Source: a virus
Taxonomy: Duplodnaviria > Heunggongvirae > Uroviricota > Caudoviricetes
IMG/VR virus record: IMGVR_UViG_2541047701_000006
DNA: 41,033 nt
Strand: one strand, 5' to 3'
Shown here in pieces: positions 10,781 through 11,756 of the stretch. Within the stretch, counting starts at the first letter, position 1. Each line of letters begins with the position of its first letter. Under the pieces are notes generated by a model, which was not told where the DNA came from, searched no databases, and saw nothing but the letters and a program-made list of their open reading frames with translations. Made by a program: the position numbers and the translations under genes.

Positions 10781-11433
10781 TGAGTAATAAATATTGCCAG
10801 GCGCTGGTGGAGCTGCGGAACAAACCAGCCCATGAACTGAAGGAAGTGGGCGATCAGTGGCGCACGCCGGACAACATTTTCTGGGGAATTAACACCCTGT
10901 TTGGCCCGTTTGTTCTGGATCTGTTCACTGATGGTGATAACGCCAAATGTGCCGCTTATTACACTGCGGAAGACAACGCGCTGGCGCATGACTGGTCTGA
11001 ACGTCTTGCGGAGCTTAAAGGTGCTGCCTTTGGTAATCCCCCGTACAGCCGCGCCAGTCAGCATGAGGGGCAATACATCACCGGCATGCGTTACATCATG
11101 AAACATGCCAGTGCCATGCGTGATAAAGGTGGGCGCTATGTTTTCCTGATCAAAGCTGCCACCAGCGAAGTTTGGTGGCCGGAAGATGCAGACCATATTG
11201 CTTTTATTCGCGGGCGTATTGGTTTTGAACTGCCAGCCTGGTTTATCCCGAAGGACGAGAAGCAGGTGCCGACAGGCGCTTTCTTCGCTGGTGCTATTGC
11301 TGTTTTCGACAAGACCTGGAAGGGACCGGCAATCAGCTACATCGGGCGCGATGAACTTGAGGCATGTGGTGAGGCCTTTCTGGCGCAGGTTCGCCAGCAG
11401 GCGGAAAAACTGGTCAGGGAGATGGCGGCATGA
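10780..11433 (+). CDS. Phage DNA N6-adenine methyltransferase (Dam-like, orphan)
   Basis: WRTPDNIF...FGPFVLDLFTD...NAKC...YYT and the catalytic GNPPYS motif; start MSNKYCQ overlaps upstream stop (TAATG). Confidence 0.8.
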   Translation: MSNKYCQALVELRNKPAHELKEVGDQWRTPDNIFWGINTLFGPFVLDLFTDGDNAKCAAYYTAEDNALAHDWSERLAELKGAAFGNPPYSRASQHEGQYITGMRYIMKHASAMRDKGGRYVFLIKAATSEVWWPEDADHIAFIRGRIGFELPAWFIPKDEKQVPTGAFFAGAIAVFDKTWKGPAISYIGRDELEACGEAFLAQVRQQAEKLVREMAA

Positions 11434-11756
11434 CGACATTAACTCAATGCCAGCAGCAGGTGCTGGATATGCTGATTTCTTACCAGAAAGAACGTGGCTT
11501 CCCGCCAACCAATCAGGAGGTGGCAACCATGCTGGGATACCGTTCAGTGAATGCAGCGGTGGAGCATCTTCGCGCACTGGAGAAAAAAGGCGTCATCACG
11601 ATAAAGCGTGGCGTGGCCCGGGGGATAACGCTTCATACCACGGTGAAGGACGACGACAGCGAGGCGGTCGGGATTATCCGCTCACTGCTTGCCGGTGAGG
11701 AAAACGCAAGGCTGCGTGCAACCCACTGGTTACATGAGAGGGGCCTGAAAGCATGA
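11430..11756 (+). CDS. LexA N-terminal DNA-binding-domain homologue lacking the S24 cleavage domain
   Basis: TQCQQQVLDMLISYQKERGFPPTNQEVATMLGYRSVNAAVEHLRALEKKGVITIKRGVARGITL parallels the LexA winged-HTH domain; ORF ends after 108 aa with no Ala-Gly/Ser/Lys protease module. Confidence 0.65.
   Translation: MTTLTQCQQQVLDMLISYQKERGFPPTNQEVATMLGYRSVNAAVEHLRALEKKGVITIKRGVARGITLHTTVKDDDSEAVGIIRSLLAGEENARLRATHWLHERGLKA

Follow-up and report, generated by a model that had tools for sequence, protein, structure and literature searches.

A LexA DNA-binding domain without its protease in the early operon of a lambdoid prophage, and its candidate role as a damage-insensitive repressor

The IMG/VR virus record IMGVR_UViG_2541047701_000006 is a stretch of 41,033 nucleotides, which in its whole length is called the window here, and it represents a lambdoid prophage integrated beside dusA. 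The subject of this article is a gene among its early rightward genes, for whose product, a mini-LexA of 108 amino acids, we use the name LexN. The protein carries the winged helix-turn-helix (HTH) domain of LexA and ends in a tail that is modelled as a helical hairpin, in the place where LexA has its S24 protease domain.

A LexA domain with a family-specific tail

LexN starts with ATG, and its translation in the list of open reading frames (ORFs) agrees with the one quoted in an earlier, sequence-only reading of the window. That reading had described a LexA DNA-binding domain without the self-cleavage domain, and in this it was right. The Pfam profile PF01726 (LexA_DNA_bind) is matched completely, residues 1-65 of LexN aligning with profile positions 1-65 of 65, with an E-value of 2.9e-19 and 69 bits against a cut-off of 23.7 bits, so that the profile match on which the reading depended is indeed significant. 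Pfam gives no match to Peptidase_S24 in LexN; the last residue of the protein is 108, and the gene that follows downstream is RusA by Pfam, rather than a remnant of an S24 domain. The lexA equivalog profile of NCBI, TIGR00498, scores 70.9 bits, which is below its cut-off of 110.95 bits, and only its positions 1-91 of 203 are covered.

The best sequence matches in the PDB are the E. coli LexA entries 1lea, 3jso and 1jhh (E about 1e-15, residues 2-69/90). An AlphaFold model of LexN has the LexA topology, with a mean predicted local distance difference test score (pLDDT) of 82, and Foldseek against the PDB superposes it on the N-terminal domain of LexA (1lea/3jso) with a root-mean-square deviation of 1.0-1.2 Å over 66-68 residues at 51% identity. 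The close parallel that had been claimed for the first 70 or so residues is thereby borne out. In the secondary structure of the model the helices of the winged HTH are residues 6-22, 28-35 and 40-52, and the strands of the wing are residues 56-58 and 66-68.

Similarity to LexA continues for some distance behind this domain, since HMMER aligns the LexN segment LLAGE with VAAGE of LexA and places A88-G89 at the scissile bond Ala84-Gly85. The pair is not conserved: close homologues have AK, AN or VG, distant members have ER, TR, DD or AE, and in the AlphaFold model the segment lies in a helix. Judged from the sequences, LexA-type self-cleavage of LexN is excluded, because the S24 catalytic domain is absent and the Ala-Gly pair is not conserved. 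We also considered a retained cleavage site, or a decoy for cleavage in trans, and rejected it in view of the unconserved Ala-Gly and the helical segment of the model.

The tail is modelled as two helices, residues 75-87 and 93-103, with a pLDDT of about 88, behind a linker (residues 72-74) which belongs to a low-confidence block with a pLDDT of 59. Its hydrophobic pattern is kept across the family down to 41% identity, with the consensus DEAvqLLRxLLaxExxARxRAxxxLkxxG. Foldseek against the PDB matched the model in the DNA-binding domain only and left the tail unmatched, a profile of the tail gave in the PDB solely artefactual, repeated weak matches to designer PPR proteins, and Pfam on 14 family members matched only HTH families and nothing in the tail. 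We propose that this family-specific hairpin may be a replacement dimerisation element, or else a partner-binding one. As a separate observation, several proteins of 140-165 amino acids carry two tandem LexA DNA-binding domains without S24 (P0131, P0152, P0155, P0160, P0163 and P0164), which makes them single-chain 'pseudo-dimers' of this domain and suggests another route to bivalency.

LexN is a member of PHROG_362 ('transcriptional repressor', 106 positions), where its residues 1-107 align with positions 1-105 at an E-value of 1.7e-59, and its homologues are 104-108 amino acids long with PF01726 as the only domain among the precomputed Pfam domains. Because PHROG_362 matches from end to end, the homologues have the same size and RusA lies directly 3', the protein is not a fragment, and 108 amino acids are its native full length. 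An exhaustive HMMER search finds full-length relatives, with the tail included, down to 41-52% identity. Among 32 distinct alleles from 80 prophage loci of IMG/VR the ratio of non-synonymous to synonymous polymorphism (pN/pS) is 0.045, and LexN is under purifying selection. Homologues P0024 and P0034 contain short stretches that match the alternative reading frame (e.g. RRHHDKAWRGP); these frameshifted copies are decaying, presumably in defective prophages.

The earlier reading had treated the gene as something out of the ordinary, and this cannot be upheld. At 95-100% DNA identity LexN is found in 50 phage records, among them mEp460, SfV (orf42), SfII, SfIV, cdtI, Ayreon and the Stx2a, Stx2c and Stx2k phages, and, in the same range of identity, in 2233 of 5426 complete E. 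coli genomes (41%), with up to 4 copies per genome, where NCBI annotates it as 'LexA family transcriptional regulator'. Proteins of 65-150 amino acids that consist of a LexA DNA-binding domain only are common in phages generally, according to a fold search of BFVD. The finding at the level of sequence is correct yet already covered by routine annotation, its type has a characterised member, and there is nothing structurally or mechanistically surprising in LexN. Full-text literature searches found no experimental study of the enterobacterial LexN family, and the 'LexA family' mentioned in papers on Stx phages refers to S24-type CI repressors.

The nin-region block and its transcription

The positions of LexN, of its neighbours and of the other features of the window are collected in Table 1. 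The ATG of LexN overlaps the stop codon of the phage Dam gene as ATGA (11430-11433), and its own stop codon overlaps the start of RusA in the same arrangement. On these signals LexN is translationally coupled inside the PR operon.

Table 1. Features of the window discussed in the text (positions counted from its first letter)
Feature	Position	Strand	Basis and remarks
LexN gene	11430-11756	+	ORF list and sequence; stop codon included
Shine-Dalgarno AGGGAG	11416-11421	+	read from sequence; 8 nt 5' of LexN ATG
LexA-type winged HTH, LexN residues 1-70	11430-11639	+	Pfam; AlphaFold; superposition on 1lea/3jso
Recognition helix, residues 40-52, VNAAVEHLRALEK	11547-11585	+	alignment to E. coli LexA
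Linker and helical hairpin, residues 71-108	11640-11753	+	AlphaFold; family alignment
Phage Dam methyltransferase	10780-11433	+	PF05869, E 1.1e-45; ORF open from GTG 10747
RusA Holliday-junction resolvase	11753-12142	+	PF05866
KilA-N protein	12162-12971	+	Pfam
DUF968/HNH protein	12973-13968	+	Pfam
Antiterminator Q	13982-14734	+	Pfam
S24-type CI	7445-8122	-	Pfam
PR-like promoter TTGACA-18-TACATT	8133-8162	+	promoter scan; cI/cro gap
CII-like gene	8419-9003		early right arm
HTH replication protein	9348-10289		early right arm
PerC-like gene	10286-10780		early right arm
Gin-like invertase	37430-38020		inside prophage end
dinI-like gene	38124-38372	-	Pfam DinI, E 1.1e-19; downstream of both SOS boxes, next to integrase
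SOS box 1, TACTGTGTTTGTATACAGTA	38386-38405		pattern search; position weight matrix
SOS box 2, AACTGTATGGATAAACAGTG	38414-38433		pattern search; position weight matrix; tandem with box 1
Integrase	38434-39531		adjoins Dus gene; next to dinI
Dus gene (dusA-type dihydrouridine synthase)	39620-40654		Dus profile, E 8e-105

Upstream of LexN the promoter scan gave a single strong promoter-like site, the PR-like one, and promoter and palindrome scans across 8.1-15.3 kb gave neither a promoter of LexN's own nor a local operator. Because no promoter-like site lies just upstream, LexN would most simply be a delayed-early product of the PR operon. A dam promoter is annotated in the SfV record (L090), with -35 and -10 elements at 29523-29549 inside the PerC-like gene; its counterpart in the window, at about 10689-10715, is nearly identical in sequence and failed the consensus promoter scan. 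If that promoter is active, expression of LexN could also be independent of PR.

LexN belongs to a conserved nin-region block with the order (PerC)-(Dam)-LexN-RusA-(KilA-N/ANT)-DUF968-Q, and this block is still found at 41% identity of LexN. In the 80 related IMG/VR loci RusA always follows LexN (80/80), at a fixed offset of +323; KilA-N is downstream in 78, DUF968 is downstream in 74, and Dam is upstream in 60. A Citrobacter freundii prophage whose LexN has 63% protein identity shows the same gene order, as does the locus of a 46% member, with an antirepressor-type gene (pRha/ANT) in the place of KilA-N, and that of a 41% member (L087), where an ORF of 67 amino acids is inserted between LexN and RusA. 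CI, the replication protein and Q, on the other hand, are often of different types among the 80 loci. Recombination exchanges the block irrespective of the immunity, replication and Q types, and a phage-specific operator is therefore unlikely as its conserved target.

DNA contacts and SOS boxes

The residues of helix 3 by which E. coli LexA contacts DNA are Ser39, Asn41, Ala42, Glu44 and Glu45 (PMC3091678). Aligned with that protein, LexN keeps four of the five (S39, N41, A42 and E45) and has V44 in place of E44, and R64-G65 of its wing is identical. Among 20 enterobacterial LexN homologues R38, S39, V40 and N41 do not vary at all, and A43, V44, E45 and R64 hardly do. Binding of LexN to CTGT-N8-ACAG boxes is plausible, because four of the five helix-3 contacts and Arg64-Gly65 of the wing are retained.

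The two tandem boxes at the dinI-like gene are canonical and are the only strong LexA boxes of the window: they score 22-26 bits, and the next-best site about 10 bits, on a position weight matrix (PWM) that was built from E. coli boxes and is a rough tool. None of 200 shuffles yielded a site that reached 20 bits. The same matrix gives 17 bits to TACTGGATCTATCAACAGGA at 38660-38679 of phage lambda (L093), in the cII-O gap; we take this site to be the LexA-regulated oop (pO) promoter region and regard it as an informal positive control. When all arrangements of CTGT and ACAG with spacers of 0-20 nt were compared in the window, only two stood out, the inverted N8 of the canonical box and the everted ACAG-N14-CTGT. 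The everted pattern has 6 sites against 0.5 expected, with 63 patterns tested (positions 2916, 6193, 9124, 15613, 33101 and 35488); all six are inside ORFs, and those at 2916 and 15613 share 18 of 24 bases.

It had been suggested from the sequence that LexN might act on the phage's own dinI-like gene through the SOS boxes upstream of it. Gene and boxes are real, as Pfam and the pattern search confirm; a dedicated link between LexN and dinI did not survive. Temperate phages are known to carry dinI genes with LexA boxes beside tail-fibre genes, and for the one in PhiKO2 regulation by host LexA is reported (PMC7556043). We found dinI with boxes in 92 phage records, at least 31 of which are without LexN; among the 50 LexN-positive records dinI is present in at least 29, and SfV, SfIV and Ayreon carry LexN without it. 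On the strength of this cross-tabulation and of the three dinI-negative phages we rejected a specific coupling. The tandem boxes can be viewed as a candidate target of LexN in cis, one which is not specific to it.

Further LexA boxes recur near the block in relatives. In the locus of the 41% member (L087), a box of 20.9 bits lies directly upstream of the unit orf-LexN-orf-RusA-DUF968-Q, where 5508-5579 holds a terminator-like hairpin, a promoter-like TTGCAA-17-AATAAT and then the box. These elements adjoin a divergent RNase_A_bac/CdiI-like toxin-immunity pair. A second position is a 150-bp gap between RusA and KilA-N, which holds a box of 21-24 bits in 185 complete E. coli genomes and in SfIV; examples, directly downstream of LexN, are 10789-10808 in L029, 32639 in L092 (SfIV) and the corresponding site in L089 (O104:H4). 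The window has neither this gap nor its box. The gap box suggests that the KilA-N gene, which is antirepressor-like, may be SOS-inducible. A third box, TACTGTAAAAATAAACAGTG, with 22.3 bits, occupies codons 3-9 of a DNA methyltransferase moron of 350 amino acids between Q and the lysis genes, for instance at 11006-11025 in L002, 34170 in SfV (L090) and 41489 in Ayreon (L091). This boxed moron is present in 28 phage records, and 27 of these have LexN as well; it looks like an SOS-controlled methylase, of which we found no description.

It would be tempting to read the association of LexN with SOS boxes as functional proof, and we rejected this argument: the methyltransferase and LexN loci are about 4.5 kb apart, so that linkage confounds the count, and LexN-negative phages are boxed too. 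With this confounding by physical linkage, the boxes that recur near the block are suggestive. One more box belongs to a different gene, namely TACTGTTTTTACATACAGTA at 5546-5565 of mEp460 (L007), which scores 24.9 bits and lies within the coding sequence of the mEp460-type CI repressor; with close variants counted, this CI-internal box is present in 27 of 80 related loci.

A proposed damage-insensitive LexA, its rivals and its known relatives

From this material we infer a DNA target, a mode of dimerisation, a timing and a physiological effect for LexN. The reading that we favour, with a probability of roughly 0.45, is that LexN is a RecA-insensitive mini-LexA from the early rightward operon, which occupies SOS boxes once host LexA has been destroyed. 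It would combine the winged HTH with a short family-specific hairpin that replaces the S24 protease and dimerisation domain. Being placed between the replication genes and Q and transcribed with the PR operon, it would be produced in lytic growth or after induction, at a time when the S24-type CI and host LexA would already be cleaved. LexN would bind CTGT-N8-ACAG boxes via the conserved residues of helix 3 and the wing, with two copies on one box joined by wing-wing contacts and the tail hairpin, and would keep or re-impose repression at SOS promoters of the host, of the prophage and of co-resident prophages. The SOS-boxed targets of the prophage itself would be dinI here, and KilA-N or the methyltransferase moron in relatives. 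Activated RecA (RecA*) should be unable to switch LexN off, because LexN has neither a catalytic domain nor a conserved Ala-Gly site. LexN would also be expected to escape the ClpXP clearance that removes the N-terminal fragment of host LexA, because it is without the C-terminal 'VAA' end that is exposed on cleaved LexA.

The isolated N-terminal domain of LexA retains SOS-box binding and repression, and ClpXP must remove it for full SOS induction (PMC10584840). In our opinion a damage-insensitive LexA is the most economical reading, because LexN is an encoded LexA DNA-binding domain that is under selection, with its contacts intact and a hairpin added, and because the isolated domain of LexA represses.

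Several points weigh against this reading. The block around LexN in the window contains no SOS box, and SOS boxes are common in lambdoid phages without LexN, as shown by dinI in at least 31 LexN-negative records and by the 17-bit site in lambda. The loci whose SOS boxes co-occur with LexN are a few kb apart in mosaic relatives, and the co-occurrence may reflect linkage. The tightest conserved partner of LexN is RusA, a recombination enzyme which is not SOS-regulated. As to the protein, one LexA contact residue differs (E44V), the conservation of four out of five contacts is not significantly above the overall identity of 51%, and the recognition helix is altered in some members (SVNTIAGHL in P0087, E45L in P0169, N41Y in P0201), a variation that is unexpected if every member must mimic host LexA.

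A bolder version of the same idea would make LexN an 'SOS reset' factor in the lambdoid and Stx prophages of about 40% of E. coli strains: a RecA-proof, ClpXP-evading and hairpin-dimerised protein that re-silences the host SOS regulon together with the LexA-controlled antirepressors, dinI and morons of rival prophages, and that sets hierarchies of induction and influences the output of Shiga-toxin phages. We consider this version doubtful. The question is of some importance, nevertheless. [quoted passage not shown] The carriers include Stx2a, Stx2c and Stx2k phages and an O104:H4 prophage, and the finding would be relevant to antibiotic-triggered induction of Shiga-toxin phages, to SOS mutagenesis and to the competition among prophages in one cell; it would also illustrate how a LexA DNA-binding domain can receive a new dimerisation device in nature. 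If LexN does not bind SOS boxes, it is just another small phage regulator.

The main rival makes LexN a transcription factor specific to the phage, one that has drifted in specificity from the SOS box and acts on a phage operator in the manner of gp6 from phage GIL01. The precedent of gp6 (PMC6182141) speaks for it, E44V would fit, as would the recognition helices that vary in some members, the family names in PHROG and NCBI go no further than 'transcriptional repressor/regulator', and tectiviral proteins with a LexA DNA-binding domain are structural neighbours of the LexN model. However, the main subfamily in E. coli has retained S39, N41, A42 and E45, and our scans gave no promoter-associated palindrome in the conserved block and no candidate operator. 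Further, the immunity, replication and Q modules vary around LexN, which leaves no constant phage promoter for such a factor, and the late genes of lambdoid phages are already served by Q. On balance we hold a drifted factor to be unlikely.

Small DNA binders of the nin region are thought to act architecturally or as targeting factors, and LexN could similarly be an accessory DNA-binding protein of a RusA/DUF968 recombination module, architectural or targeting, rather than an SOS regulator. Linkage and translational coupling to RusA in 80/80 loci and in the 63% and 46% members, with DUF968/HNH following, are what one would expect of such a protein, and at 41% identity an ORF of 67 amino acids comes between the two genes. 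The conserved base-contact residues of LexA argue for sequence-specific recognition instead, the tail resembles no known partner of RusA in searches of the PDB, and gene order in the nin region often means shared timing rather than physical interaction. An accessory role is, in our opinion, improbable.

Still less probable is the opposite effect, namely that LexN antagonises LexA by competing for half-sites or by disturbing LexA dimers, while repressing weakly itself, so that SOS is raised or prolonged and induction is favoured. LexN does have the same DNA-recognition surface as LexA, and a DNA-binding domain without the dimerisation domain of LexA should bind more weakly, given what is known of the N-terminal domain of LexA (PMC10584840). 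Yet whatever occupies a promoter-overlapping box should act as a repressor, LexN is expected from PR after inactivation of CI, when derepression of SOS adds little, and the conserved tail points to oligomerisation of its own and stable binding. Finally, that LexN no longer functions and is what remains of a truncated LexA or CI-like repressor gene, as the alignment through the hinge and cleavage region (LLAGE vs VAAGE), where its origin is apparent, and the frameshifted copies in some genomes (P0024, P0034) might suggest, is effectively refuted by selection and conservation: pN/pS is 0.045, thousands of copies, down to those of 41% identity, keep a constant length of about 106-108 amino acids and a conserved tail, and the gene has a good Shine-Dalgarno sequence and translational coupling.

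The preferred reading, a damage-insensitive LexA, should be seen beside what is already known. The proteins of PHROG_362, or 'LexA family transcriptional regulator' in the terms of NCBI (SfV orf42, mEp460, Stx2 phages), are the same family as LexN, and there is no difference to report. With host LexA (TIGR00498; 1lea, 1jhh, 3jso) LexN shares the winged HTH at 51% identity, the DNA contacts and R64-G65, and a residual similarity in the hinge. It differs in being without S24 and the Ser119/Lys156 dyad, a hairpin of 30 residues replacing the C-terminal domain, and in being phage-borne, placed in the PR operon, below the equivalog cut-off and from a family in which Ala-Gly is not conserved. The cleavage fragment LexA 1-84 is likewise a LexA species with the DNA-binding domain only, and it provides a functional model for LexN. 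That fragment, however, is a transient product of proteolysis with a new C-terminus that ClpX recognises, whereas LexN is genetically encoded, has an additional conserved tail and ends in GLKA or GVKV.

The closest characterised analogue is gp6 of the Betatectivirus GIL01, a truncated LexA homologue which binds a palindrome of its own via K38 and activates the late promoter P3 (PMC6182141). Both are phage-encoded LexA DNA-binding domains without the cleavage domain. As LexN is expected to be, gp6 is an early gene product that acts after DNA damage (PMC6182141), and its tectiviral relatives are neighbours of the LexN model. Scans for an operator-like palindrome found none near Q, in the late region or inside the LexN block. 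The setting is different too, with gp6 in a tectivirus of Gram-positive bacteria and LexN in the nin region of lambdoid phages, whose late genes are controlled via Q. By description, LexN is set apart from gp6 by Arg38, which is as in LexA where gp6 has K38, by the LexA contacts that it has kept, and by a distinct hairpin.

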